A stretch of DNA of 53,518 nucleotides from a bacterium (GCA_040003675.1 JBDUCC010000001.1:1-53518); one strand, 5' to 3'. Positions 2,146-52,716 are shown, counted from the stretch's first letter. Program-made: numbers and translations. Notes: generated by a model not told the origin, from the letters alone.

Positions 2146-3282
2146 ATGAAAACATTCAGCGAACAAATCAAAGTTATCGAGGTCGACAAAATCGGCTCGG
2201 CCACGTCGCCGCTCGATTTGCACCGGACAATTGAGATGTGCGGGTCGCTAAAGTTGCCGGCTGCGGGCGATGTGGTGGTTGTGCGCGCCCTGACTGACAG
2301 CGCCACTTACAACATGCTTGAACTGCCCAGCGGCCGGCTTGCCAAAATCAATCCCGGTGATGTGCTCGTCGGTGTTCTTGGCAGACGCCGGGCATTGAAG
2401 GGCTTCATGGGTGACGTGCCGGAGACCGTGGCTGTGGGCGATCAACTTCATTTGCTGAACATGGGCGGCGTGATCGGCATCAGCACCGGCCATCACTCTG
2501 GTTTGAGCGATGCAATCAAGGTTGAGGTACTCGGCTTCGCCTGCGGTGAGAACGGCCGCCAGTTGAACATCGCCGATGCAGCGCTGCCGGTGCAGACCGA
2601 TCTAACTGAAACGGTGCCCCTAATAATCATCGCCGGCACCTGCATGAACAGCGGCAAGACCTACGCCGCCACGGAGCTTATTAAACAAGCGACGCGGGCC
2701 GGCTTGCGCGTGGCCGCAGGCAAACTGTCGGGCATCGCTTGCTTGCGCGACACGCTGAACATGTCGGACCACGGGGCGGTTGCCACTGCAAGTTTCCTTG
2801 ATTGCGGTTTGCCATCAACCGTTGGCGCCACGGACCTGCCCTCTGTCGCTAAGACGATCATTGCCCGGCTTAACGAAAGCAATGCCGACCTGATAGTGAT
2901 CGAACTAGGGGATGGGCTGCTGGGCGGCTATTCCGTGGAAACGGTGTTCGATGATCTACAAATAAGAGAAGCCACCGCTGCCATCATCTTCTGCGCTTCC
3001 GATTATGTCGGCGCCTGGGGAGGAATCGAACTAATGCGCCGGCGTGGGATTGAAATCGACGTCATCGCCGGGTCCGTTACCGATGCGCAGATGGGGCAGG
3101 ACTACATCGAAAAGGAATTTGGTGTGCCGGCGGCCAACGCACGGCGCGATGGCGCGCGTTTGTTTGAGCTGGTCAAGCCACAAGTTTCGGGTTTCGAGTT
3201 TCGAGTTTCGAGTTTGAAGCAGGAAAGGTCGAATCAAGCTGTGATGCCGGATCAGAACTCTGTCGAGAAAGTTTTGGCTTAA
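2146..3282 (+). CDS. uncharacterised protein inside the arg operon: beta-rich N-terminal half plus a P-loop-like C-terminal half (possibly DUF1611-like)
   Basis: The long ORF runs 2128-3282. ATG 2146 is preferred because AAGGCGGGA lies 3 nt upstream and it is 10 nt after the argG stop. It has a deviant Walker-A-like IIIAGTCMNSGKTYAATEL followed by VIELGDGLLGG. The stop overlaps the argC start (TAATG). Its last ~33 codons are encoded by a repeat arm. Confidence 0.7.
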   Translation: MKTFSEQIKVIEVDKIGSATSPLDLHRTIEMCGSLKLPAAGDVVVVRALTDSATYNMLELPSGRLAKINPGDVLVGVLGRRRALKGFMGDVPETVAVGDQLHLLNMGGVIGISTGHHSGLSDAIKVEVLGFACGENGRQLNIADAALPVQTDLTETVPLIIIAGTCMNSGKTYAATELIKQATRAGLRVAAGKLSGIACLRDTLNMSDHGAVATASFLDCGLPSTVGATDLPSVAKTIIARLNESNADLIVIELGDGLLGGYSVETVFDDLQIREATAAIIFCASDYVGAWGGIELMRRRGIEIDVIAGSVTDAQMGQDYIEKEFGVPAANARRDGARLFELVKPQVSGFEFRVSSLKQERSNQAVMPDQNSVEKVLA

Positions 3283-3316
3283 TGAACTCGAAACTCGAAA
3301 CTCGAAACTCAAAACT
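3183..3316. repeat. hairpin of inverted heptamer arrays (gtttcga / tcgaaac) spanning the junction of the unknown gene and argC
   Basis: The left arm agtttcgggtttcgagtttcgagtttcgagttt (3183-3215) faces the right arm aactcgaaactcgaaactcgaaactcaaaact (3285-3316). The 69-nt loop contains the TAATG stop/start overlap. Confidence 0.9.
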
Positions 3317-6049: not shown

Positions 6050-7060
6050 TTGCTTAAGAATTTTCTGACAACTTCTGACTTCAGCAGCGAACAACTTAAT
6101 CAATTGATCGCGGCGGCGCTGCGCTTTAAGAGCGGTGCCGATACATCAAAGCCGCTTGCCGGCAAGTCTATCGCACTAGTCTTCTTCAACCCCTCTTTGC
6201 GCACGCGCGCGTCGATGCAAATTGGAATCCACGAACTGGGTGGACTCGGCGTTGTGCTCGAACCGGGAGGCACAAGCTGGACGCTGGAACATCGCGCCGG
6301 AGTGGTGATGGATGGCGACAAGACCGAACACGTCGCCGAGTTTGTACGCGTCCTTAGTCGCTACTGCTCAGCCATCGGGGTGCGCACCTTTGCCGCGTTA
6401 AAGAACTGGGAAGAAGAGCGAATAGACCCAATACTGAATGCCTTCGCTAAGTATTCCGACGTGCCTGTTATTAACCTTGAGTCAGCCATGCATCATCCCT
6501 GTCAGGCGCTGGCTGACATGATGACGATTCGCGAAAGACTCGGCCGCGAACGTAAACGCGTCGTGTTGACGTGGGCCTGGCACCCAAAACCCCTTCCGAT
6601 GGCTGTGCCAAATAGCTTTGCGCTCGCAGCGGCGCAGATGGGCCATGATCTGGTAATCGCCTATCCCACGGGTTATGAGCTCGACGAAGAGTTAATGGAA
6701 AATGTCACTCAGCGTGCAGCGGCGAGCGGCGGTGGTGTCCAGGTTACAAAGAACATCGATGCGGCGTTTGACGGCGCCGATGTTATCTATGCGAAGAGTT
6801 GGGGAGCCAGGCAGTTTTACGGAACACCTGAAAAGGACATTGCGGAACGAGCACAGTACCGCGCTCAGTGGATTGTCGATGAGCAGAAAATGGCACGTAC
6901 GAACCGGGGCGTCTTCATGCACTGTTTGCCGGTGCGACGCAACGTGATCGTCACCGATGCCGTGATCGATTCACCGGCTTCTGTGGTAATCGATGAAGCG
7001 GAAAACAGGTTGCATGTGCAAAAGGCAATCATGGATAGACTGCTGAGTACTGAGTACTGA
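6050..7060 (+). CDS. argF': N-acetylornithine carbamoyltransferase (AOTCase-type transcarbamylase)
   Basis: 336 aa with a TTG start. From memory it is very similar along its length to Xanthomonas AOTCase (FFNPSLRTR, HPCQALAD, CLPVRRNV, DEAENRLHVQKAIM). Glu80 (gaa 6287-6289, context SWTLEH) sits where AOTCase has the specificity Glu and succinylornithine enzymes have Pro. The last 6 codons and the TGA lie in a repeat array. Confidence 0.85.
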   Translation: MLKNFLTTSDFSSEQLNQLIAAALRFKSGADTSKPLAGKSIALVFFNPSLRTRASMQIGIHELGGLGVVLEPGGTSWTLEHRAGVVMDGDKTEHVAEFVRVLSRYCSAIGVRTFAALKNWEEERIDPILNAFAKYSDVPVINLESAMHHPCQALADMMTIRERLGRERKRVVLTWAWHPKPLPMAVPNSFALAAAQMGHDLVIAYPTGYELDEELMENVTQRAAASGGGVQVTKNIDAAFDGADVIYAKSWGARQFYGTPEKDIAERAQYRAQWIVDEQKMARTNRGVFMHCLPVRRNVIVTDAVIDSPASVVIDEAENRLHVQKAIMDRLLSTEY

Positions 7061-7178
7061 GTACTGAGTGCTGAGTACTGAGTGCTGAGTACTGAGTGCT
7101 GAGACCACGCCCAACTCGGAACTCGAAACTCGAAACTCGGAACTCGAAACTCAGTACTCAGTACTCAGTACTCAGCAC
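7043..7178. repeat. compound heptamer element: ctgagta/ctgagtg array, nested aactcga/aactcgg array, then tcagtac array
   Basis: 7043-7103 holds about 8.7 units of ctgagt(a/g). 7113-7150 holds about 5.4 units of aactcg(a/g). 7151-7178 holds 4 units of tcagtac/tcagcac, the reverse complement of the first array. Confidence 0.95.
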
Positions 7179-13024: not shown

Positions 13025-13156
13025 TCAGAAGTCAGAAGTCAGAAGTCAGAAGTCAGAAGTTAGAATAACTCAGGTGTTGGCTGTCAGTTGTCAATTCTTA
13101 GCAGAAAACGCGTCACGCTTCTGAACTGACCTCTGACCTCTGACTTCTGACCTCTG
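13025..13156. repeat. hairpin of inverted heptamer arrays (tcagaag / cttctga, gacctct) between the kinase and RDD genes
   Basis: 13025-13066 holds tcagaag x5 plus ttagaat. 13118-13156 reads cttctgaactgacctctgacctctgacttctgacctctg. Confidence 0.9.
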
Positions 13157-13163
13157 CCTTTTA

Positions 13164-19477: not shown

Positions 19478-19482
19478 ACCGA

Positions 19483-19596
19483 GCAAACAGCGAACAGCAG
19501 ACAGCAAACAGCCGGAGAAACAACTCTGAAGTTGCTGGACTGAAAGTTCCTGATTGCCTATAACAAATGCTGTTTGCTGTTGACTGTTTGCTGTTT
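19483..19596. repeat. hairpin of inverted heptamer arrays (aaacagc / gctgttt) between permeases 1 and 2
   Basis: gcaaacagcgaacagcagacagcaaacagc (19483-19512) faces gctgtttgctgttgactgtttgctgttt (19569-19596). Confidence 0.9.
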
Positions 19597-19605
19597 ACTA
19601 ATCGC

Positions 19606-22235: not shown

Positions 22236-22379
22236 GGAGCAGACGGCAGCGGCAGACGGCAGGGGCAGTCGGGCGAAGGCATACACGCGGCGGCAATTAC
22301 GTTTTTATCCTGCCGACTGCTCCTGCCGACTGCCGACCGTTATTATCCTGCCGACTGCTCCTGACCGACTGCCGACTCC
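22236..22379. repeat. hairpin of inverted approximately 7-nt arrays (gcagacg / ctgccga) with a duplicated right arm, between permeases 3 and 4
   Basis: The left arm is ggagcagacggcagcggcagacggcaggggcagtcgg (22236-22272). The right arms are cctgccgactgctcctgccgactgccgacc (22309-22338) and cctgccgactgctcctgaccgactgccgactcc (22347-22379). Confidence 0.9.
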
Positions 22380-23654: not shown

Positions 23655-23659
23655 AGGAT

Positions 23660-23761
23660 GTAGGGTGTTGGGTGTAGGGTGTAGAAAAAAGAAGGCGTCT
23701 CCTTCTCTACACCCAATATCTCTTGCTCTTACCTACACCCTACACCCTACACCCTACACCC
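23660..23761. repeat. hairpin of inverted heptamer arrays (gtagggt / ctacacc) between convergent genes
   Basis: gtagggtgttgggtgtagggtgtag (23660-23684) faces ctacacc x4 (23733-23761). An inner hairpin gggtgtaga...tctacaccc lies at 23677-23714. Confidence 0.9.
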
Positions 23762-23781
23762 TTGCTCTTACACCCTTGCTC

Positions 23782-24576
23782 TTACATCATCCCGCCGGTA
23801 ATGCCGGCTAAAGTGCTGCGAACAATCACTCCAATGATCCAGATCGTCAGCACGATTCCCCAGGCAGCGCCTGAAGACATCTTTCCAACTTTCTTCAATC
23901 CCAAAGCTGCCAGGAACAAACCGTAAAACGCGAACAGATCAATCGAACTCAACAACGTTCCCAACACCGGCGATGCTTTTGGATCAATGAATAGGCCCAG
24001 GTTCGCCTGCACCAGCCCGCGCCGCGAAGCGTGCACAATGTCGTAATCGTCCGGCGATTTAATGAACAGCAACACAATGTTCAGCAGCATTGAGATGACT
24101 ATTGGCGGCATGGCCGAGTAAGTCCAAACGGCCAGCGCCTGCTTGTAACTAAGCTTGCGGCCCATCAACATCGAGCCGAGCAAATACAAACCTGCACCCG
24201 CCGCAATGATGAGTGCCACGACGATGATTGGCGAGCAGTAGTAGATCGCCTTTACCACCGGACCGGTTTGCATCCGGATCGCTTGTTCCTTCTGCTCCGG
24301 AGTCATTTGTTCCGCGCGCGGCGAGTTTTCGATCGCTTCAGTGATCATGCGGTCATAGCCGACGCGCTGAAAAAACAGCGTGGTGAACGCCAGCAATGCG
24401 ATGGTGCAGATGATTGCGGCTGCCAGGAAACGCGGACGCTGGCGCAGTGCTTCGAACACGCGGCTGGGTTCAAAGAAAATGCCAGTCAAGGTTTGTGCGG
24501 TGGACATTGTCGCTTCGTCCGGGGCCTCGGTGACAGGCGGCGGGGGTACTAAGTCTTGGCTGTTGGGGTCGCTCAT
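23782..24576 (-). CDS. Yip1-domain membrane protein
   Basis: 264 aa. A cytosolic N-terminus (TGIFFEPSRVFEAL) is followed by about 5 hydrophobic segments, the pattern typical of bacterial YIP1/DUF1282 proteins. Confidence 0.6.
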   Translation of the reverse strand: MSDPNSQDLVPPPPVTEAPDEATMSTAQTLTGIFFEPSRVFEALRQRPRFLAAAIICTIALLAFTTLFFQRVGYDRMITEAIENSPRAEQMTPEQKEQAIRMQTGPVVKAIYYCSPIIVVALIIAAGAGLYLLGSMLMGRKLSYKQALAVWTYSAMPPIVISMLLNIVLLFIKSPDDYDIVHASRRGLVQANLGLFIDPKASPVLGTLLSSIDLFAFYGLFLAALGLKKVGKMSSGAAWGIVLTIWIIGVIVRSTLAGITGGMM

Positions 24577-25813: not shown

Positions 25814-25941
25814 CAGCAGATTACGCAGATTTCACAGATTTCTTCTCGACAGCGACGACGTGATTCTTACTCCAATGTGGGCGGACGGCTATTAACGTTT
25901 TAGCGTTTTACCCTAATCTGTGGAATCTGCGTAATCTGCGG
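25814..25941. repeat. hairpin of inverted 9-nt arrays (cagattacg / aatctgcgt) between the two ATPase genes
   Basis: cagcagattacgcagatttcacagatt (25814-25840) faces aatctgtggaatctgcgtaatctgcgg (25915-25941). The right arm encodes the C-terminal ...SADYADSTD and the TAG of the upstream gene. Confidence 0.9.
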
Positions 25942-26950
25942 ATACTTTCTGATGGTCGGCGGCAACCGCAGCCGCCAAATCAAACAGCACGCATCGAACC
26001 TTCACACCGCCTTCTAAATCGTAAAACGGTATCTCTTCCGCAGTGCAGCGCGGCATACGATACGGACAGCGCGGCGCGAAATGACAACCGGGCGGAAGAT
26101 CCGTCGGGCTGGGAACCGTCCCTTCGATTGTCTCCAGTCGTTCGGCTTTGCCGGCAGCCGCACTGGTAAGTTTCGGGACGGATCGCAGCAATCCTTCGGT
26201 GTAGGGATGGCGCGGCCGTGCAAATAATTCTTCAACCGGCGACTCTTCGACAATGCGGCCGGTGTACATAACTGCTACCCGATCGGCAACTTCAGCGACG
26301 ACGCCAAGATCGTGTGTTATTAGAAGCACTGCCAGCTCGCGATTCTTTCTGAGCTCATTTAACAACTCGAGAATCTGCGCTTGAATAGTAACGTCCAATG
26401 CCGTCGTCGGCTCGTCGGCAATCAATAGTTTCGGATCGCAGGCCAGGGCCATTGCGATCATCACACGCTGGCGCATGCCGCCCGAGAGTTGATGCGGGTA
26501 ATCGTCGATGCGTCGCGCCGGATCGGGAATGGAGACTTCGCGCATCGCCTCAATAGCGCCTTCGCGCGCGGCTTTGCGCGAAAGTTTGCGATGCAAGCGC
26601 AGGGCTTCGGCAATCTGTTCGCCAACGGTGAAAACAGGATTCAGGGACGTCATTGGATCCTGAAAGATCATCGCAATGTCGTCGCCGCGAATCGCGCGCA
26701 TCTCACTATCTGATAGTTTCAGCAAATTCCTGCCGTCAAAACTAATCTCCCCACCAACAATCTTTCCCGGCGGCGCGATCAGCCGCATGATCGAAAGCGC
26801 AGTGATTGATTTGCCACAACCGGATTCGCCAACCAGCCCCAGCAGCTCGCCTTTATCTATGTAAAAGCTCACGCCATCGACCGCGCGCACCAAACCGGCA
26901 CGCGTGGGAAAGTGTGTTTGCAGATTATTTACTTCGAGCAGGTGTGACAT
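25913..26950 (-). CDS. oligopeptide/dipeptide ABC transporter ATP-binding protein (OppD/DppD type)
   Basis: It has [34 protein letters not shown] and [11 protein letters not shown] 26950 ([10 protein letters not shown]) is preferred; it lies 2 nt after the mutase stop. Confidence 0.85.
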
Positions 26951-40014: not shown

Positions 40015-40082
40015 GTCGGATGTCAGAGGTCAGAGGTCAAATGCAGACTTCTGACCTCCGATCTCTGACCTCTGACCTCTGA
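40015..40082. repeat. hairpin of inverted heptamer arrays (tcagagg / cctctga) between the two TGA-containing genes
   Basis: gtcggatgtcagaggtcagaggtca (40015-40039) faces tctgacctccgatctctgacctctgacctctga (40050-40082). Confidence 0.9.
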
Positions 40083-40084
40083 TT

Positions 40085-40813
40085 ATGTCTTTCTCGAGAA
40101 AATGCGTTCCCTTTACACCGTTTGATGGTGAGCTAGCGAAGAGCACTGTGGCATTAGTCACCGCTGGAGGCGTTCATCTCAAAGACCAGGAGGCATTCAA
40201 TATAGCCGATGAGCTTGGCGATCTGACTTATCGCGTAATTCCGGAGGACGTCGATGCGGCTGACCTGGTGGTTACACATCATCATTACGACCACAGCGAT
40301 GCGGACAAAGATATTAATGTCGTGTTCCCGATTGACGTGCTTCGGGATCTTCAGCACGAAGGTTTCATTCGCGGAATCGCAAAGAAGCACGTCGGCTATA
40401 TGGGCTATACCATGCAGCTCAAAGCAATGTACGAAGGAACCGCACGTGAAATCGCCAACGAGATCGACAAAGGGTCGCGCGCCGATGTGGTAGTTCTAAC
40501 GGGTGGTTGACCAAGCGTTTGTCACCGCACGGTCGTAGCGGTTCAGCGGGAAATTGAGATGAGAGGCATACCAACAGTTTTGATAACGGTGAGCCCTGAA
40601 GTCTCGGCGCAAATGCGGCCGCCACGCGCTCTTTATCCAAACGGATTTAAGATCGGCAACAGTTTGGGAAAGCCTAATATGCGCGAACTGCAGTTAAAGG
40701 TCTTGCGTGATGCCTTATCGTTGCTGGCGGAAGACACGCGACCCGGGAAAATCGTTACGCGCGATTATCCTGAGTACGGTGAATATCATGAACCCCCGCG
40801 AGTGAAGACATAG
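40085..40813 (+). CDS. glycine/sarcosine/betaine/D-proline reductase selenoprotein-B (GrdB/PrdB)-like family protein with in-frame TGA at 40508-40510; candidate selenoprotein
   Basis: Track ORFs 40085-40510 and 40559-40813 are in the same frame with no other stop between them. The joined product reads ..ADVVVLTGG-U-PSVCHRTVVAVQREIEMRGIPTVLIT... The N-terminal ALVTAGGVH and HHHYDHSDADKDINVVFPIDVLRDL also fit the family, as I recall it. Confidence 0.65.
40524..40542 (+). promoter_or_regulatory. candidate SECIS hairpin for the GrdB-like TGA
   Basis: ACCGC / acggtcgta / GCGGT starts 13 nt after the TGA, and the loop contains GGUC. Confidence 0.4.
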
Positions 40814-40943
40814 TTTCGAGTTCAGAGTTTCGAGTTTCGAGTTCACGATCCCCTTAGGTAAACTCTGAATCAATTCACGCTAGCACTCGACTTTGATCTG
40901 ATGGTGGCTGACGCCTTTAACTCGAAACTCGAAACTCGAAACT
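40812..40943. repeat. hairpin of inverted heptamer arrays (agtttcg / cgaaact) between the GrdB-like gene and pfkA
   Basis: agtttcgagttcagagtttcgagtttcgagttc (40812-40844) faces aactcgaaactcgaaactcgaaact (40919-40943). It uses the same heptamer as the 3183-3316 element and the 7113-7150 array. Confidence 0.9.
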
Positions 40944-44598: not shown

Positions 44599-44624
44599 TT
44601 CTGACTTCTGACTTCTGACTTCTG
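44599..44624. repeat. unpaired heptamer array (ttctgac x3.7) immediately upstream of the biotin carboxylase start
   Basis: ttctgacttctgacttctgacttctg. No inverted partner lies within about 150 nt. It uses the same unit as the right arm at 13118-13156. Confidence 0.85.
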
Positions 44625-44629
44625 GGCGC

Positions 44630-46189
44630 ATGATCCGAAAAATTCTAATTGCCAATCGCGGTGAGATCGCCGTCCGCATAATTCGCGCCTGTCGCGATCT
44701 GAATATCTCGCCGGTGGCGGTTTATTCAGAGGCGGATAGTACGGCGGTCCATGTGGGACTCTGCGCTGAAGCGATCTGCATTGGACCCGCCCCCTCTGTC
44801 GAAAGCTATCTCGACATTTCAAAAATCATTGACGCGGCAAAGAAGACCGGCGCGGACGCGATTCATCCCGGTTATGGTTTTCTTGCCGAAAATGCTGACT
44901 TTGCAGCAGCCGTTGCCGCGGCTGGATTGATATTTATTGGCCCGGGCGTGGAAGCGATGCGGGTAATGGGTTCCAAGACAAGCGCTCGCAGTGCAGCAGT
45001 GGACGCGGGCGTTCCAATCGTTCCCGGTACCGTGGCACCGTTGAATTCTTTTGCAGACGCCGAAGCAACCGCAAAACAATTTGGTTATCCGGTAATGCTT
45101 AAAGCATCTGCGGGAGGCGGCGGCAAAGGCATGCGGTTGGTCACAACCCCGGGAGAGCTGCGGTCGGCTTTTGCTAATGCCAAATCAGAAGCAGCGTCAG
45201 CGTTCGGCGATTCCGCAGTCTACCTGGAGAAAGCAATCGACCGGCCGCGTCATATTGAAATTCAGATCGTCGGCGACAAGCACGGTAATGTGGTCCACTT
45301 GGGAGAGCGCGAATGCTCAATTCAGCGGCGCCATCAGAAGGTGGTTGAAGAGTGCCCATCGCCAATCAACGATCCTTCACTGCGCGAGCAAATGGGTGCG
45401 GCTGCCGTTCAACTGGCGCGTGCTGTGAATTATGTGGGCGCAGGCACGGTGGAGTTTCTGGTAGCCGCCGCCACCCGCGAATTTTTTTTCCTCGAGATGA
45501 ACACCCGTTTACAAGTTGAGCATCCGGTGACCGAATTGGTGACCGGCATCGATATTGTGCGCGAACAGATTACCGTTGCTGATGGCGCGCCGCTTTCGTT
45601 TACGCAGCAGCAGGTTGATTGGCGCGGGCACGCGATCGAGTGCCGCGTTTACGCCGAAGATCCGGAGAATAATTTCTTTCCTTCACCGGGAAAAATCAGT
45701 CATTTGCGAATTCCTGACGGTCCGGGTATCCGCGACGACAGCGGTGTTGAAATCAACTCGGAAGTTTCGATTCATTACGACCCCATGATTTCAAAGCTGG
45801 CGGCCTGGGGCAGCACTCGAGAAGAGGCCATCGATCGCTTGCGGCGCGCGCTTGATGAATACGAAGTGGGTGGCATCAAGACGACGCTTCCCTTCTTCCG
45901 CGAGATCGTTCGCGACGAAGAATTCATCGCCGCCCGATTAGATACCGGATTCATTGGGCGTTTTAACGAGCGACGTGAAGGAGGGCGCGCAGCTGCTTCT
46001 GGGAATGTTGAACGGCAGACGTTACAGGACATCGCGCTGATTGCGGCCGCCGTTCATCACGCGCGATCACAAAAAGAGGCTTCTTCGAGGCCGGTGACCG
46101 AAGGTGGTCAAAGTCGTTGGAAGATGGCGGGACGTACAGCCTTGCTAGTTGAAAGGACCGCAACGCGGGACAGAAAGCTGAAGAAGTAG
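44630..46189 (+). CDS. accC: biotin carboxylase (acyl-CoA carboxylase biotin carboxylase subunit)
   Basis: 519 aa with KILIANRGEIAVRIIRA, an ATP-grasp domain (GGGGKGMR), and EMNTRLQVEHPVTE. A C-terminal tail of about 70 aa follows, and there is no fused biotinyl domain. Confidence 0.9.
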   Translation: MIRKILIANRGEIAVRIIRACRDLNISPVAVYSEADSTAVHVGLCAEAICIGPAPSVESYLDISKIIDAAKKTGADAIHPGYGFLAENADFAAAVAAAGLIFIGPGVEAMRVMGSKTSARSAAVDAGVPIVPGTVAPLNSFADAEATAKQFGYPVMLKASAGGGGKGMRLVTTPGELRSAFANAKSEAASAFGDSAVYLEKAIDRPRHIEIQIVGDKHGNVVHLGERECSIQRRHQKVVEECPSPINDPSLREQMGAAAVQLARAVNYVGAGTVEFLVAAATREFFFLEMNTRLQVEHPVTELVTGIDIVREQITVADGAPLSFTQQQVDWRGHAIECRVYAEDPENNFFPSPGKISHLRIPDGPGIRDDSGVEINSEVSIHYDPMISKLAAWGSTREEAIDRLRRALDEYEVGGIKTTLPFFREIVRDEEFIAARLDTGFIGRFNERREGGRAAASGNVERQTLQDIALIAAAVHHARSQKEASSRPVTEGGQSRWKMAGRTALLVERTATRDRKLKK

Positions 46190-46768: not shown

Positions 46769-46897
46769 GGGATGAAAGCGGAAAGATGAAGGACATCCTA
46801 AAGGATGAAGGCGGAAGGATGAAGGATGAAACGAAGCCCACTGGCGTGTCGCGGGGATCATACTCATCCTTCATCCCTCATCCTTCATCCTTCCGCG
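46769..46897. repeat. hairpin of inverted heptamer arrays (ggatgaa / ttcatcc) upstream of, and overlapping, the HAD gene start
   Basis: Left arrays at 46769-46830 read gggatgaaagcggaaagatgaagg...aaggatgaaggcggaaggatgaaggatgaa. The right array at 46863-46897 reads ctcatccttcatccctcatccttcatccttccgcg. Confidence 0.9.
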
Positions 46898-47595
46898 CCC
46901 TCCTCTGGGACATCGATGGCACGCTGATGCGCTCTGTCCGCGCCGGTTCATTCAAGGACTACACCATTCCCATGTTGGAAGAAGTTTTCGGGACGGCCGG
47001 ACGTTTGCCGGAGATGAGAGTTTCGGGAATGACCGACTTGCAGATCGTCGGCGAGGCTCTGAAACACGAAGGCTTCACGCATGAACACATCCGCGAGCGC
47101 GTGGACGACTTGTGCGAGAGCTACATGAAAGCAATGCGCAAGTTTACCGGCAACGGTGACCAGGTATTTGAAGTTTTACCTGGAGTGCGCGAGGCGCTGC
47201 AAGTGGTGCACGATCATCCGCGCTATCAGTCCGCACTAGTCACCGGCAACATCGAGCCAGCCGCGTGGTTGAAGATGGAGATTGTCGAATTGGCGGAATT
47301 CTTCACGCTACCCGGCGCGTTTGGCGATGAATCGCACGACCGCCGCGATCTTCCTGCGCTCGCCGCAGACCGGATCCGCAAACATCTGCAAATGGATCTC
47401 GCACCCGAACAATTCATCGTCATTGGTGACACGCCGAATGACATTGAATGCGCTAAACATTTCGGCGCGCGCTCGTTGGCGGTTGATACGGGAAGGTTTT
47501 ATACAACCAACGATCTGATCGCGTGCCAACCCGATGCGCTTCTGCCGGACCTTACAGATCTTGATCTCATTATGCGAACGTTCGCTAAGTTATAA
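46819..47595 (+). CDS. HAD-superfamily hydrolase (subfamily IA, phosphatase-like)
   Basis: It has motif I LLWDIDGTLMRS, motif II VTGN, and motif IV IGDTPNDIECA. The only in-frame ATGs upstream of motif I (46786, 46819) lie in the repeat arm, so the N-terminal 25-35 aa are repeat-encoded. Confidence 0.75.
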   Translation: MKDETKPTGVSRGSYSSFIPHPSSFRALLWDIDGTLMRSVRAGSFKDYTIPMLEEVFGTAGRLPEMRVSGMTDLQIVGEALKHEGFTHEHIRERVDDLCESYMKAMRKFTGNGDQVFEVLPGVREALQVVHDHPRYQSALVTGNIEPAAWLKMEIVELAEFFTLPGAFGDESHDRRDLPALAADRIRKHLQMDLAPEQFIVIGDTPNDIECAKHFGARSLAVDTGRFYTTNDLIACQPDALLPDLTDLDLIMRTFAKL

Positions 47596-48522: not shown

Positions 48523-50568
48523 CTAGATCCGGTGGAAACCTTTAAGAATGTCGCGGGTGGCGAGACGGAGAATGACCGGGCGGCCGTGCGGGCACGTTGT
48601 TGGTGAAGAGGTTTTCAAAAGTCGATCAATCAGCCAGTGCATCTTCTCCGGCGTCAGCGGCATGTTCACTTTGATCGCTGCATGACAAGCTAACGAGGCC
48701 GCAATGTCATCGCGCAAAGTCTCGCGCGCGCTTCCCTTCTTCTCTGCGTCAACCGTGTCCAGGATTTCGGCCAGCAGGTTACGCGCTTCGCCCGCAGGCA
48801 AATCGGCGGGCGTGGCTTTTATCGCCACAGTGCGCCCGGACAAACGCATCAATTCAAAACCGTAACTCTCCAGTTCGACTGCGACTGAATCAAACACCGC
48901 GGCCTGGGCCGGCGTTAGATCAAAAGTTTCGGGAATCAATAGCTGCTGCGACTCTGACGTGCGCGTGGATTCCAGCGCGCGATACTTGTCGAACAGAATT
49001 CGCTCATGGGCCACGTGCTGATCGATTAGCAGTAACCCTTCATCGTCGGTGGCAATGATGAAGCTTTCATCCAGCTGGCCCAGCGGACGAATGTTGGTTG
49101 ATAACGATTCGACCAGGACTTCTCGCGCAAACTTGTCCGCGGAATTAAGAGGTGGCAACGACGACACGCCCGCTGAGGCGAGCGGTTCTGACACTGCTGC
49201 TGCCGTCTGCTCCTGCTGACTCGGCGTCACATCAGTCTCAATCAACGCCTCCGGGCTCAGTGTTTGCCCAGCCAATTCCTGCCGCATGATCGCATCCAGA
49301 TCGCGCGCAGTGTCAGATTTTTTCGCTTCAGATACTGATTCATGCAGCAACAAATCTTCGTCCTGCATGGAATAGTCAACGAAGTCGATGCGTGATTGCG
49401 ATGCGGCTTCGCTGCCACCCGAACCGGCGAAACTGGAAATACTTCCCGGAGATAATGGATTAAGTGCAGAGGTGTTAATAGAAGTCTGACTTGCGGCCGC
49501 CGACATGGTGCTAACAGACGGATCCGGATCAGTTTGATTGAAAGCTGCTTCCTGCTGAGCCTCGGGGCGAACAAAGCCTGCGCTTGCCAACCCGGAACGC
49601 ACCGCTTCGCGCACAGCCTCGGCGACGGCGGCAGCGCGCCGAAATCTTACTTCCGTTTTCGCCGGATGGACGTTGACGTCAACTTCTTCGAGCGGAGTTT
49701 CAATAAACAACAGAGCGGCGGGATAGACCCCATGCGGCAGCACGGCCCGATAACCTTCCGAAAGCGCGTGAGAAATTAGCCGGTCTCTGACGAACCTGCC
49801 GTTTACAAACAGGTACTGCGCATCGCGCGAGCTGCGCCGGTCACGCGGGGCGGAAACGAAGCCAATCACGCGCGCCACTTGCGGATTGCCGCCATTGACT
49901 GCAAGCAAGTTATCAAGAAAGTCTGCGCCAAAAATCTGATACGCGCGCTCGCGCAAGTCCTTAGCAGGTGCTGCGCGTAAAACTTCGCGGCCGTTGTTAG
50001 TCAGGGTTAGGGCGATTTCCGGATGGGCCAGGGCGTAGTGGGTTACCAGATTGGTTAGGTGAAAACTTTCAGTCGCTTCCGAGCGCAGAAATTTACGGCG
50101 CGCCGGCACGTTGAAGAAAAGGTCGCGCACTGTGATGGTCGTACCACGCGGGTGTGCCGCATCCTTCACATCGCGCATTTTTCCGCCTTCAATAACAACA
50201 CGCGTGGCTGCGTTTGCAGCTTCCGTTTTCGTAGTCAGCTCGACGCGGGCGACGGAGGCGATCGAAGCCAGGGCCTCGCCGCGAAACCCGAGGGTCGCGA
50301 TGGCAGCGAGATCCTCCGACTTGCTGATCTTGGAAGTGGCATGTCGTTCAAAAGCGAGCACCGCATCGTCGCGCACCATGCCCTCGCCGTTGTCGGAAAC
50401 TTTCAGCAGACGTCGGCCGCCGCTCTCAACATCCAGCGTGATGCTGGTGGCGCCGGCATCAATCGCATTCTCAATCAGCTCTTTGGCAACCGACGCGGGC
50501 CGCTCAACGACTTCGCCGGCTGCGATTTGATTTGCAAGATGGTCGGGAAGGACGCGGATTTTGGACAT
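48523..50568 (-). CDS. mutL: DNA mismatch repair protein MutL
   Basis: 681 aa with an N-terminal GHKL ATPase (IAAGEVVERPASVAKELIENAIDAG, GFRGEALASI), a long disordered linker and a C-terminal dimerisation/endonuclease domain (DQHVAHERILF...CPHGRP). Confidence 0.95.
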   Translation of the reverse strand: MSKIRVLPDHLANQIAAGEVVERPASVAKELIENAIDAGATSITLDVESGGRRLLKVSDNGEGMVRDDAVLAFERHATSKISKSEDLAAIATLGFRGEALASIASVARVELTTKTEAANAATRVVIEGGKMRDVKDAAHPRGTTITVRDLFFNVPARRKFLRSEATESFHLTNLVTHYALAHPEIALTLTNNGREVLRAAPAKDLRERAYQIFGADFLDNLLAVNGGNPQVARVIGFVSAPRDRRSSRDAQYLFVNGRFVRDRLISHALSEGYRAVLPHGVYPAALLFIETPLEEVDVNVHPAKTEVRFRRAAAVAEAVREAVRSGLASAGFVRPEAQQEAAFNQTDPDPSVSTMSAAASQTSINTSALNPLSPGSISSFAGSGGSEAASQSRIDFVDYSMQDEDLLLHESVSEAKKSDTARDLDAIMRQELAGQTLSPEALIETDVTPSQQEQTAAAVSEPLASAGVSSLPPLNSADKFAREVLVESLSTNIRPLGQLDESFIIATDDEGLLLIDQHVAHERILFDKYRALESTRTSESQQLLIPETFDLTPAQAAVFDSVAVELESYGFELMRLSGRTVAIKATPADLPAGEARNLLAEILDTVDAEKKGSARETLRDDIAASLACHAAIKVNMPLTPEKMHWLIDRLLKTSSPTTCPHGRPVILRLATRDILKGFHRI

Positions 50569-50571
50569 AGC

Positions 50572-50604
50572 GATAGATTCTAGATACTAGATGCTGGATG
50601 CTAG
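50572..50604. repeat. left arm of the heptamer hairpin (gatagat tctagat actagat gctggat gctag)
   Basis: This 7-nt periodic array is the reverse complement of the array at 50996-51028 and contains the TAG stop (50601-50603) of the four-helix-bundle gene. Confidence 0.9.
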
Positions 50605-50999
50605 TCGTTTGCTGAATTTCTGACAGATCGCATCAGTCCATTCAAGATGCGACCTACCTCGTCAAGTTGCCCGCGCAATGCTTCATGTATCTCAAGACTC
50701 AGAAAGCCAAGTCGAGTAGCTGATTCTAAATGAGTGTCAAGTTCCCAAAGCGAGCCCCTAGCGTTAGAGAGAAAATATAGAAATTCTTTTGTGAGTCTTC
50801 GGCCTTGTCCTTCGGCGATGTTTGCCGGGATGGAAGTAACTGCTCGGCGGATCTGACTCGTGAGACCGTACCTCTCTTCGATTGGGAACCGCTCCGTCGC
50901 GCGGTAAACGCTGACAACCAGATCCATTCCTTTCTGCCAAACGATCAAGTCTCGATGACTTTTTATCACGGCCTTGGCTGAAGCGTTCGTCTCTTGCAT
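50601..50999 (-). CDS. four-helix-bundle protein (23S rRNA intervening-sequence protein / Avd-like family)
   Basis: 132 aa. It has DLIVWQKGMDLVVSVY, ERYGLTSQIRRAVTSIPANIAEGQGR and FLSNARGSLWELDTHL, the signature pattern of this family. Confidence 0.9.
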   Translation of the reverse strand: MQETNASAKAVIKSHRDLIVWQKGMDLVVSVYRATERFPIEERYGLTSQIRRAVTSIPANIAEGQGRRLTKEFLYFLSNARGSLWELDTHLESATRLGFLSLEIHEALRGQLDEVGRILNGLMRSVRNSAND

Positions 51000-51028
51000 C
51001 TAACATCTAGCATCTAGCATCTAGCATC
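50996..51028. repeat. right arm of the heptamer hairpin (gcatcta x4.7)
   Basis: gcatctaacatctagcatctagcatctagcatc contains the ATG (50999-50997, minus strand) of the four-helix-bundle gene. Confidence 0.9.
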
Positions 51029-51030
51029 TT

Positions 51031-52716
51031 TCAAAGGTAAACAATCTGATGCTCATTCGATCCAATATTGATCGCATTGTAGATCCACTCGATGACGTAA
51101 CGGCCGTGGCGGGCGAGCAGTGAAGTGATGTTGATATGGCGCTCCTGCAATTCTTTGTTGGGGTAGAGTTGATCGAAGGCGCGTTGCAGTTGCCGGTGGG
51201 CGGCTTCGTCGCGCGTCATCTGGGCGCGGTGAAAACGCGTGCGCAGTCCTTCAAGTTGATAGTTGATCTTGCGCCTGCCGGTTTCCAATGCGTCCGCTAA
51301 CGTTGGGTCTATCGTGCGCAGTTGTTCCCTCAGTTTGTCGAGCTCGCTGTTAACCGATTGTTCCGTGACCCCGAAAGTCTTCGCCGTCGCTGCGCCCAAA
51401 TGTTCCTCAACCACGCGCGCCAGCACATTTTCCGCACCGGCAAACAGATCCGCTAGTTCCAATCCATAACGCTCGAGCACGCGGCCGGTATGGGATTCAA
51501 TCATAGTCAGACTGGCGCGCGGCAGAATCGGCGTCGCTGGTCTTTCCAGGATTCGATAAACCTCGGCCGTCTGCGCGAAGTAAGCAATCTCGGCGGCGCC
51601 GCCGTAATACGCAATGCTTGGCAACAAATAATCCTGGACCACCGCGCGCAACGTAACGTTTGGACTGAACCGCTCGGGCTGGGCTAGCGCCATTTGTGCC
51701 AGCTCGTCGGCGCTATAAGCTTCATCGCTATTCTTAGTGGTGTACTTTCCGGCGGCAGTGCGCACGAGGGCATGCCGGGCGCCGCCCGTGTCATGCAGGA
51801 AAAGCGGAAACGAATTCTCCGAAGGCGTCACCTGGGCGTGATAGCCTGCTTTTACCAGCCGCTTGCTGCGCGTTTCAATGGCCGTGGCAATCTCGTGAGC
51901 ACGCGTCGCCGCCTGCGAATACAACGGAGCCGCTAATTTCTTCAGCCGCGGATCAAGCGGATCGAGAAATATCAATCCGTGATTGCCTAATAACGCAGTC
52001 ATCATGCGGGCAAAAGCCTCGCTGTAGGAACGGCCGGGCCGCCACGCGTCGCGCACTACTGCTTCGAGATCTGGAGTGAATTCGGAAACGGGAAGCAGCT
52101 CCAGCAATTGATCCACCACCGTATTGATCGAATCGTTGATCGCAACGCGGCCAACAGGTTGTCCTTCATGGTGTAACTCCAGCGGAACTTCGACGTGTGC
52201 GAGGCGGCAATCGCGTCCGATGAATTCAGCCTTGGCGACTTCAGGAAAGTCGTGGTCCTCGGTGGCGATCCAGAAGACAGGAACAGTTTTCGTGTTGCGC
52301 TGCGTCAAACAACCCGCCAGTTTCACAGCCGACAGCGCTTTGTAGATTGTGTAGAGCGGGCCGGTAAACAAACCTGCCTGCTGGCCCGATACGGCCGCAA
52401 GACAATCCGCGTCACGCAGCAGTTCGATGTTTTTGAGGGTGGCTTCGCCGGCGCCCCACGCGGCATTCATATCCAGCAACGCGTTGCAAAGTTGATTACG
52501 GTCGCTTTGATAAGTGGCGAGAACTTCAGGTGCGCGCGCCGGCAGCTCATGATGGAACTTAACGGCTGAAGGATAAAACTCTCTAAGCGCCAGCGGATCG
52601 CGCAGGTAATCCAGAAACAGCCGCGACTGTTGCGGGATAGTCTCAAACGACAGACTCTCTACGCGCAGTCCGGATTCTTCAGGGGTGCTGTAACAGGCAG
52701 GTTCGGCAGTACTCAA
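51031..52716 (-). CDS. bshC: bacillithiol biosynthesis cysteine-adding enzyme BshC
   Basis: 561 aa. LFLDYL, VSGQQAGLFTGPLYTIYKALSAVKLA, VPVFWIATEDHDFPEV and the coiled-coil C-terminus match the BshC/YllA family. Confidence 0.8.
   Translation of the reverse strand: MSTAEPACYSTPEESGLRVESLSFETIPQQSRLFLDYLRDPLALREFYPSAVKFHHELPARAPEVLATYQSDRNQLCNALLDMNAAWGAGEATLKNIELLRDADCLAAVSGQQAGLFTGPLYTIYKALSAVKLAGCLTQRNTKTVPVFWIATEDHDFPEVAKAEFIGRDCRLAHVEVPLELHHEGQPVGRVAINDSINTVVDQLLELLPVSEFTPDLEAVVRDAWRPGRSYSEAFARMMTALLGNHGLIFLDPLDPRLKKLAAPLYSQAATRAHEIATAIETRSKRLVKAGYHAQVTPSENSFPLFLHDTGGARHALVRTAAGKYTTKNSDEAYSADELAQMALAQPERFSPNVTLRAVVQDYLLPSIAYYGGAAEIAYFAQTAEVYRILERPATPILPRASLTMIESHTGRVLERYGLELADLFAGAENVLARVVEEHLGAATAKTFGVTEQSVNSELDKLREQLRTIDPTLADALETGRRKINYQLEGLRTRFHRAQMTRDEAAHRQLQRAFDQLYPNKELQERHINITSLLARHGRYVIEWIYNAINIGSNEHQIVYL

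Follow-up and report, generated by a model that had tools for sequence, protein, structure and literature searches.

We analysed a 53,518-nt stretch of bacterial DNA (GCA_040003675.1 JBDUCC010000001.1:1-53518; hereafter the window), which was assigned to the Pyrinomonadaceae (Acidobacteriota, Blastocatellia) through the relatives of its BshC protein. Between bshC and mutL, on the minus strand, lies a small gene for a four-helix-bundle (4HB) protein, bracketed by two tandem arrays of 7-nt units that are inverted relative to each other. An original prediction, made from the window sequence, had described this gene as the loop of a heptamer hairpin. The coordinates that it gave for the open reading frame (ORF), the arrays, the bshC stop and the mutL start were all recovered by ORF calling, Tandem Repeats Finder (TRF), inverted-repeat search and Pfam/NCBIfam profiles. 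The features of the locus are as follows.

51031-52716, minus strand: bshC (bacillithiol synthase), the upstream host gene; PF10079, PF24850, and TIGR03998 with 476 bits.
50569-51030, minus strand: the whole exchangeable cassette (array-ORF-array), delimited by homology breaks against close relatives and by junction states in 76 genomes.
50992-51029, minus strand: the 5' arm on the sense strand, (TAGATGC)n, about 5.4 units; TRF, inverted-repeat search and sequence.
50601-50999, minus strand: the 4HB gene, 132 aa, ATG start, forming a hairpin 'loop' of about 390 nt; PF05635/TIGR02436, XCC0516-like.
50572-50604, minus strand: the 3' arm on the sense strand, (GCATCTA)n, about 4.4 units, partly degenerate; TRF, inverted-repeat search and sequence.
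48523-50568, minus strand: mutL, the downstream host gene; TIGR00585 with 563.7 bits.

The array-ORF-array unit occupies the 462-nt bshC-mutL gap completely. On the sense (minus) strand the order is bshC stop, (TAGATGC)n, ORF, (GCATCTA)n, 3 nt and mutL ATG. TRF reported the period-7 arrays at 50574-50604 (4.4 copies) and 50992-51029 (5.4 copies), and the inverted-repeat search returned arms at 50572-50604 and 51000-51032, 33 nt each, 85% complementary and with 395 nt between them. The 5' arm starts 1 nt past the bshC stop codon and the 3' arm stops 3 nt short of the mutL ATG. Both the start ATG (50997-50999) and the stop TAG (50601-50603) of the ORF sit inside the arrays, in agreement with the predicted gene-as-loop topology: the last 5' unit provides a TAG that closes the upstream frames together with the ATG of the 4HB ORF, and the ORF's own TAG falls within the first 3' unit. 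No reverse transcriptase, recombinase or transposase was found near the cassette, whose neighbours are ordinary housekeeping genes (besides bshC and mutL, a racemase and a DHDPS-family gene). A promoter and terminator scan of 50300-51300 predicted none, an Rfam scan of the whole window gave zero matches, and jackhmmer found no further 4HB copies in the window. In a near-identical contig from a public sequencing run (L001), the 5' arm is one heptamer unit shorter than at 50992-51029 of the window, a strain-level variation in array copy number that is consistent with slippage.

Profile hidden Markov model (HMM) searches bore out the assignment of the protein to the four-helix-bundle family. It matched PF05635 (23S_rRNA_IVP) with 127.7 bits (cut-off 33.8, E 2.6e-37) over profile positions 1-106 of 106, TIGR02436 ('four helix bundle protein') with 124.5 bits (cut-off 24) and NF008911 with 137.7 bits (cut-off 137). 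The profiles for Avd, a protein of diversity-generating retroelements (DGRs), stayed below threshold (bAvd PF22296, 35.1 bits with a cut-off of 40; NF033474, 38.3 with a cut-off of 80). Judged by profile scores, the 4HB family is related to Avd, but the window gene is not an Avd. PF05635 and PF22296 were the only Pfam matches of the flanked gene, with none to HUH/Y1 (IS200/IS605-like) transposases. The nearest solved structure is 2GSC (XCC0516 from Xanthomonas campestris; E 4.6e-30, residues 12-128), deposited as five chains and described as five four-helix bundles, and by homology to it the window protein is predicted to adopt the same fold and a pentameric assembly. The core motif of the family has been given as GxxRxxxSxxxNxxE (PMC3936711), and its R-x3-S-x3-N-x2-E residues are present here: QIRRAVTSIPANIAEG in the window protein aligns column for column with QLRRAAVSIPSNIAEG in XCC0516. 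Compared with orthologs, dN was 0.08-0.3 and dS was saturated, with dN/dS of 0.03-0.12 where computable; the ORF is thus under purifying selection. Decayed copies are found occasionally, with frameshifts in L093 and L112 and a truncation in L013.

The arms of the cassette are predicted to form a long-range stem, which was present in both the minimum free energy and the centroid folds of the sense RNA. In the computed fold of a 481-nt RNA, bases of the 5' arm paired with the 3' arm at a mean probability of 0.83, with values of ~1.0 where the ribosome-binding site of the 4HB ORF would be. The arm duplex energy was -43.6 kcal/mol, compared with -11.7 +/- 3.5 for shuffled arms. The ungapped complementarity score of the window locus was 18, and a score of at least 14 was reached by 0 of 2000 random control pairs spaced 400 nt apart.

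The association between 4HB genes and inverted arrays extends well beyond the window. We collected 80 loci from soil and other metagenomes with 4HB homologs of 50-85% identity, selected by similarity to the window protein. Orthologs of at least 67% identity nearly all lay in the bshC-4HB-mutL setting, and paralogs of lower identity lay in unrelated ones (ychF/panC, aldehyde DH-alanine DH, histidine kinase-NtrC, flgG, pilT-like and nagZ). With a minimum score of 12, complementary flanks were found at 65 of 83 4HB loci, compared with 7 of 2000 random controls; raising the minimum to 14 left 58 of the loci and 0 of the controls. The median array size is 4.3 units in the 5' arm and 4.1 in the 3' arm, and the 3' array begins a median of 4.5 nt past the 4HB stop codon. 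The 4HB gene was usually co-oriented with its neighbours, with the upstream one at 59 of 69 loci and with the downstream one at 47 of 62. Across 1.25 Mb, the loops between paired arrays were bimodal in length, measuring either 0-150 nt or 350-500 nt. All of the long loops were 4HB genes and no other cargo was found. Three long 'pairs' that seemed to carry other gene families (L015, L043 and L044, with ORFs that we labelled by reading, and not by a Pfam run, as GNAT-like, accB-like and accC-like) proved to be neighbouring local hairpins of one and the same unit, the 3' arm of the first having been paired with the 5' arm of the second. TAGATGC arrays were confined to the sides of 4HB genes in 956 kb of unbiased Pyrinomonadaceae DNA, and no dispersed ORF-less TAGATGC hairpins were detected.

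The bshC-mutL junction was surveyed in 76 species-level Pyrinomonadaceae genomes with conserved synteny. Empty sites, as would be expected if the cassette is insertional, were found in 18 of them (spacer of 25 nt or less). A 4HB cassette was present in four (L005, L009, L010 and L057), all with TAGATGC or TAGATGT units, and 25 had an ORF-less heptamer hairpin with varied units. The remaining junctions held arrays with weak pairing (10/76), another palindrome (10/76), something else (8/76) or, in one case (L013:7683-7902), a 4HB gene cut to ~48 N-terminal codons between AGAAGTC and CAGAGGT-type arrays. In the nearest relatives by BshC (L002, 91%; L004, 90%), a GGTCTTT/AAAGACC hairpin stands in place of the cassette; homology with the window is lost at the bshC stop codon and regained at the mutL ATG. 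By these comparisons the cassette is shown to be an insertion relative to an ancestral, spacer-free bshC-mutL junction. The junction is also a general insertion hot spot. In L050:7683-8358 and L063:2665-3223 it holds other small ORFs without arrays, one secreted-looking and the other ORF6N-like (a reader's label, with no Pfam run).

Two metagenome contigs, L083 and L092, capture the exchange of one cassette for another. Upstream of the cassette they share 99.3% identity over 2961 nt, downstream 98.5%, and between these flanks they carry 4HB alleles whose proteins are 70% identical and whose arrays are TAGATGC in one and CAGATGT in the other. Identity breaks at the bshC stop codon and again ~10 nt before the mutL ATG. 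Protein identities to the window point the same way, with 90% for BshC and 70% for the 4HB protein in L094, and 82% and 85%, respectively, in L009. This incongruence indicates that the cassette has its own history. Alignment of these contigs shows that the cassette is exchanged as one unit with its boundaries at the arrays, and the original proposal that such elements are insertional gains from the empty sites, from this whole-cassette replacement between 99%-identical flanks and from the many unrelated contexts.

We also considered whether the ORF-less hairpins are internally deleted 4HB cassettes, and rejected this as a general rule. The spacers of L002, L004, L076, L006, L008 and L073 aligned locally to the window cassette no better than shuffled sequences did, and nhmmer and hmmsearch found a 4HB remnant in only one of 23 ORF-less loops, that of L013, which is the sole detectable intermediate between a cassette and an ORF-less hairpin. 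By eye, the loop of L002 had seemed to resemble the 4HB gene at its 5' end, but the resemblance was not significant.

The same architecture recurs outside the Acidobacteriota. A tblastn search of plasmids returned 45 records, mostly from Nostocales, of which 16 loci were inspected, a small sample dominated by cyanobacteria. Complementary short-period arrays stood on both sides of the 4HB gene at 12 of the 16, and at two others there was a 3' array only, adjoining an insertion sequence element. Examples are listed here.

Anabaena sp. 90: cas6-[CAGGTGA]-4HB-[complement]-cas4.
Nostoc edaphicum: GTAGGGA x8 / TCCCTAC x5, between ribonucleotide reductase (RNR) genes.
Calothrix: TAGGGTG arrays.
Nostoc C052: CAGGGAA arrays.
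Picosynechococcus: cmr2-4HB-cmr3.
Gemmatirosa: 8-mer arrays.

In three of the cyanobacterial plasmids (L162, L166 and L180) the cassettes lie in cas6-cas4 or cmr2-cmr3 gaps. The first 50 kb of the Nostoc edaphicum plasmid pNe_5 contained just two arrays, too few for a within-replicon test. In X. campestris, X. sacchari, Stenotrophomonas and Dyella, the XCC0516 orthologs all have the arrangement accB-[5' array]-4HB-[3' array]-accC, with a 5' array of GGGAATC GGGAGTG GAGAATC GGGAATC and a 3' array of CCATTCC CCATTCT CGACTCC CTATTCC. The unit GGGAATC of this cassette is the dispersed Xanthomonas repeat of Rehm 2015 (PMC4692102), which counted ~186 arrays and 70-75 inverted (convergent) pairs per genome; in the supplementary table of that paper repeat #15 overlaps the XCC0516 start codon, and the paper draws no connection. 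Directly downstream of accC in X. sacchari, two inverted GGGAATC arrays enclose a loop of ~195 nt that has no ORF (L172:4315-4549), ~1.4 kb from the 4HB cassette that uses GGGAATC too.

The Azospirillum lipoferum plasmid AZO_p2 links these loci to ribosomal RNA. It carries a homologous 4HB ORF inside a 23S rRNA gene, where the insertion replaces the apex of a helix at positions ~1205-1227 of the large-subunit rRNA model, that is, helix 45. Its arms read CAGAGGA CGGATGA CAGAGGA CGGAGGA and their complement and are thus heptamer-periodic, which strengthens the analogy with rRNA intervening sequences (IVSs) drawn in the original prediction. Sequence comparison shows one array-4HB-array architecture that recurs across many genomic settings and at least five bacterial phyla, a genuine helix-45 rRNA IVS among them.

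ORF-bearing 23S rRNA IVSs, which occupy helix 45 or 25 in Leptospira, Coxiella and others and are excised by RNase III, have been known since 1993. In Coxiella, RNase III cuts midway along the 28-bp terminal stem of the IVS, whose S23p ORF has been reported as decaying and untranslated (PMC4990558). The cassettes resemble such IVSs in enclosing a PF05635 ORF, in size (~430-480 nt), in a terminal stem of ~28-33 bp and in a sporadic distribution consistent with horizontal transfer (for the window cassette type, 4 of 76 junctions and an allele swap); the heptamer-periodic arms of the Azospirillum helix-45 IVS are like those of the window cassette. They differ in three respects. The window cassette lies between protein-coding genes of an operon and not in helix 25 or 45 of 23S rRNA, its arms are tandem heptamer arrays, a feature unmentioned in the searchable open-access IVS literature, and the window-type ORF experiences strong purifying selection, in contrast to the reported decay of the Coxiella S23p ORF. 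The window locus thus has the stem (of at least ~20 bp), the PF05635 cargo and the sporadic distribution of an rRNA IVS in a different location, and may be called IVS-like without being an rRNA IVS, its excision being suggested by analogy.

The sequence of the heptamer varies together with the protein. The unit followed the protein phylogeny (Mantel r 0.53, p 0.001), and the 5' and 3' units were exact reverse complements of each other at 24 of 38 loci and one base off at 12 of 38; among non-cognate pairs the corresponding shares were 6% and 15%. TAGATGC was retained among orthologs with saturated synonymous sites. The unit sequence itself is conserved, beyond mere complementarity.

Apart from the cassette, the window has ~11 array hairpins built from eight other units, with loops measuring 2-75 nt and a density of ~1 per 5 kb. 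Nearly all lie between co-directional genes and abut stop and start codons, and no 4HB gene is nearby. The original prediction had seen the cassette as built from the array architecture of these other loci; no sign was found that the window's ORF-less hairpins derive from cassettes that lost their cargo. Eight of them are located as follows.

810-907, 3181-3316, 13025-13160, 19482-19599, 23655-23786, 40015-40082, 40812-40943 and 46799-46893: ORF-less inverted heptamer hairpins, loops 2-75 nt.

The units of these eight are ACTTTGT, AGTTTCG (twice), TCAGAAG/CAGAGGT, AGCAAAC, AGGGTGT, GGTCAGA and AAGGATG. Several related structures were noted. The composite at 7038-7175 consists of CTGAGTA x9, then unpaired AACTCGA x6 and then ACTCAGT x4, with a 3'-arm-type array of one family occupying the hairpin loop of another. 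At 25817-25942 there are inverted 9-mer arrays, CAGATTTCA x2.9 and AATCTGCGG x3.1, of like architecture with a period of 9 and not 7. A lone TTCTGAC x3.7 array without a partner (44599-44624) abuts the start of accC (44612-46189); the Xanthomonadales accB-accC junction has the 4HB cassette described above, and heptamer hairpins flank the accB-like and accC-like ORFs of L043 and L044. A HAD-family hydrolase has a long ORF (46786-47595) whose 5' end runs through a full AAGGATG/TCATCCT hairpin (46786-46893); the true start probably lies downstream of the hairpin. L043 shows the same arrangement, which indicates that the hairpin position is conserved. Tandem repeats of 13 nt and 38 nt at 22239-22377 (GCAGACGGCAGCG; CGTTATTATCCTGCCGACTGC) are unlike the heptamer hairpins in kind.

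We favour, with moderate confidence, the reading that the bshC-mutL spacer is one discrete cassette, the operon-resident counterpart of an ORF-bearing 23S rRNA IVS. The cassette would be transcribed by read-through within the bshC-mutL transcript, and once the 3' arm is made the arrays would pair into a stem of ~30 bp that buries the translation-initiation region of the 4HB ORF. Such a stem would be a substrate for RNase III, as in rRNA IVSs, and cleavage would excise or insulate the insert, which could then reside within essential transcription units without much burden on the host. The 4HB protein would be made only co-transcriptionally, before the stem closes, or after it opens. Its likeliest role is a putative binding of the array nucleic acid of its own cassette. 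The earlier suggestion that the protein family acts on such stems stands as an association, with 4HB genes as the sole cargo, in several phyla and with units that track the protein tree; the action itself is a conjecture from these patterns.

Several points weigh against this reading. Cleavage by RNase III is argued entirely by analogy, and cleavage of a stem that abuts the mutL start could also alter mutL expression. A mere stem would require neither conservation of the unit nor its tracking of the protein tree. Stem mismatches in 65 cassettes had no excess of wobble pairs on the sense strand (G.U 57 and A.C 64, p = 0.59), so the test was neutral and nothing in the sequence speaks positively for selection on pairing in the RNA as opposed to the DNA. 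Furthermore, at two of the 16 plasmid loci (Pseudanabaena galeata pPg_01, L166, arranged cas6-4HB-cas4, and an Oscillatoria nigro-viridis plasmid, L184) the arrays are direct and not inverted; they are long, with CTAAAAG x16 upstream and CCAAAAG x10 downstream, and a stem is impossible. The arrays may therefore have an importance of their own, apart from forming hairpins.

Such observations would be better accommodated if the arrays were putative RNA or DNA binding sites of the pentameric 4HB protein, each paralog having its own unit and the hairpin being secondary. We regard this protein and cognate-site module as possible but rather unlikely; it overlaps the IVS-like reading and does not exclude it. 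Under it, the cassette would either maintain itself in the manner of REPIN/RAYT elements or serve as the 'master copy' for a regulon of ORF-less arrays at other places in the genome. The covariation of unit and protein, the matching 5' and 3' units, the retention of the unit despite saturated synonymous sites, the direct arrays and the missing wobble asymmetry all fit, as do the ~4-5 units per array (medians 4.1-4.3), set beside the five chains of the XCC0516 entry, and the sharing of GGGAATC between the Xanthomonadales cassette, the dispersed Xanthomonas arrays and the ORF-less pair next to accC in X. sacchari. However, the covariation could be plain co-inheritance, TAGATGC arrays are 4HB-adjacent and not dispersed in the 956 kb, the other hairpins of the window use eight other units without a nearby 4HB gene, and no catalytic or transposase activity is known for the 4HB fold. 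The likeness to REP/REPIN-RAYT systems lies in a single gene between inverted repeat copies, in elements placed between co-directional genes and, for Xanthomonas, in a cassette repeat that is also dispersed genome-wide as intergenic palindromes. It does not extend to the 4HB proteins, which have no HUH/Y1 transposase features, to the repeats, which are many different tandem 7-mers and not one REP consensus, or to the Pyrinomonadaceae unit, which was not found dispersed in the 956 kb.

The abundance of ORF-less hairpins raises the alternative that these are generic host elements, a REP-like operon punctuation, and that a passenger ORF landed in one loop with no functional link to the arrays. 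The ~11 hairpins of the window, almost all between co-directional genes, the ORF-less hairpins at the same junction in 25 of 76 relatives and the loops without 4HB remnants (L013 excepted) are what it would predict. It does not explain why 4HB genes are the only cargo ever seen in such loops, why arrays move with the ORF in the L083/L092 swap or why TAGATGC arrays occur only with 4HB genes. The association also holds in Cyanobacteriota, Xanthomonadales, Gemmatimonadota and an alphaproteobacterial rRNA IVS, and this cross-phylum recurrence largely refutes the passenger explanation, which we consider very improbable. Still less credit is due to an orphan Avd gene left over from a DGR. The protein does share with Avd a homologous four-helix-bundle fold (the fold and the pentamer being known from the literature and a PDB entry) and has the weak profile similarity reported above, but neither score reaches its cut-off, the surrounding genes are bshC, mutL, the racemase and the DHDPS-family gene with no reverse transcriptase or template/variable repeats, and synteny is conserved in the 76 genomes without reverse transcriptase. 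For the window locus this reading is refuted.

Cyanobacterial STRR are also heptamer repeat arrays. Other such arrays have been described as GGGAATC in Xanthomonas and GGGGA(C/T)T in Nostoc (Rehm 2015, PMC4692102) and as TAACTGA in Beggiatoaceae, cyanobacteria and Bacteroidetes (MacGregor 2015, PMC4679880). Like these, the arrays of the window are tandem 7-nt units, typically in ~4 copies, intergenic and often abutting start codons, and they have the at least 3-4 tandem intergenic units with a convergent partner nearby of the arrays in Rehm 2015. In contrast, those arrays were read as G-quadruplexes or regulatory elements of 5' untranslated regions, unlinked to 4HB proteins or IVSs, whereas arrays of the window type bracket one gene family and move with it. 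In the searchable open-access literature we found no prior link of PF05635, TIGR02436, XCC0516 or S23p to heptamer repeats. We tentatively extend the argument to the family as a whole, as a possibility that we rate well below an even chance: PF05635 pentamers may be sequence-specific partners of short-period, mostly heptamer, arrays, every paralog having a unit of its own, with gene and arrays forming an autonomous module in rRNA or operons and having the dispersed heptamer arrays as genome-wide targets. Candidate targets are the GGGAATC arrays of Xanthomonas, the STRR and GGGGAYT arrays of cyanobacteria, the TAACTGA arrays of Beggiatoaceae and the arrays of Acidobacteria. If so, the dispersed arrays would form a post-transcriptional regulon or a REPIN-like propagating population of repeats.

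The 4HB/'S23p' family is very large and uncharacterised. The DGR protein Avd belongs to it, and the position of 4HB genes between cas genes has often led to the family being misread as CRISPR-associated. Such genes within cas loci were taken as possibly CRISPR-linked (PMC3936711); the label of these '23S_rRNA_IVP' genes may instead reflect insertion of cassettes into cas operons, with no functional link. Cassette insertion would likewise explain 4HB genes inside acc, RNR and two-component operons to which they do not belong. Together, our comparisons show that a 4HB gene with its inverted heptamer arrays acts as a discrete, exchangeable insert in operons and rRNA, so that three separate puzzles, the ORF-bearing rRNA IVSs, the 4HB/'S23p' family and the over-represented intergenic heptamer repeats of Xanthomonas, cyanobacteria and other groups, are linked by one shared architecture. 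The 4HB family thereby gains a concrete candidate substrate, its own arrays, and the question becomes testable in the tractable X. campestris, where a crystal structure of XCC0516 already exists.

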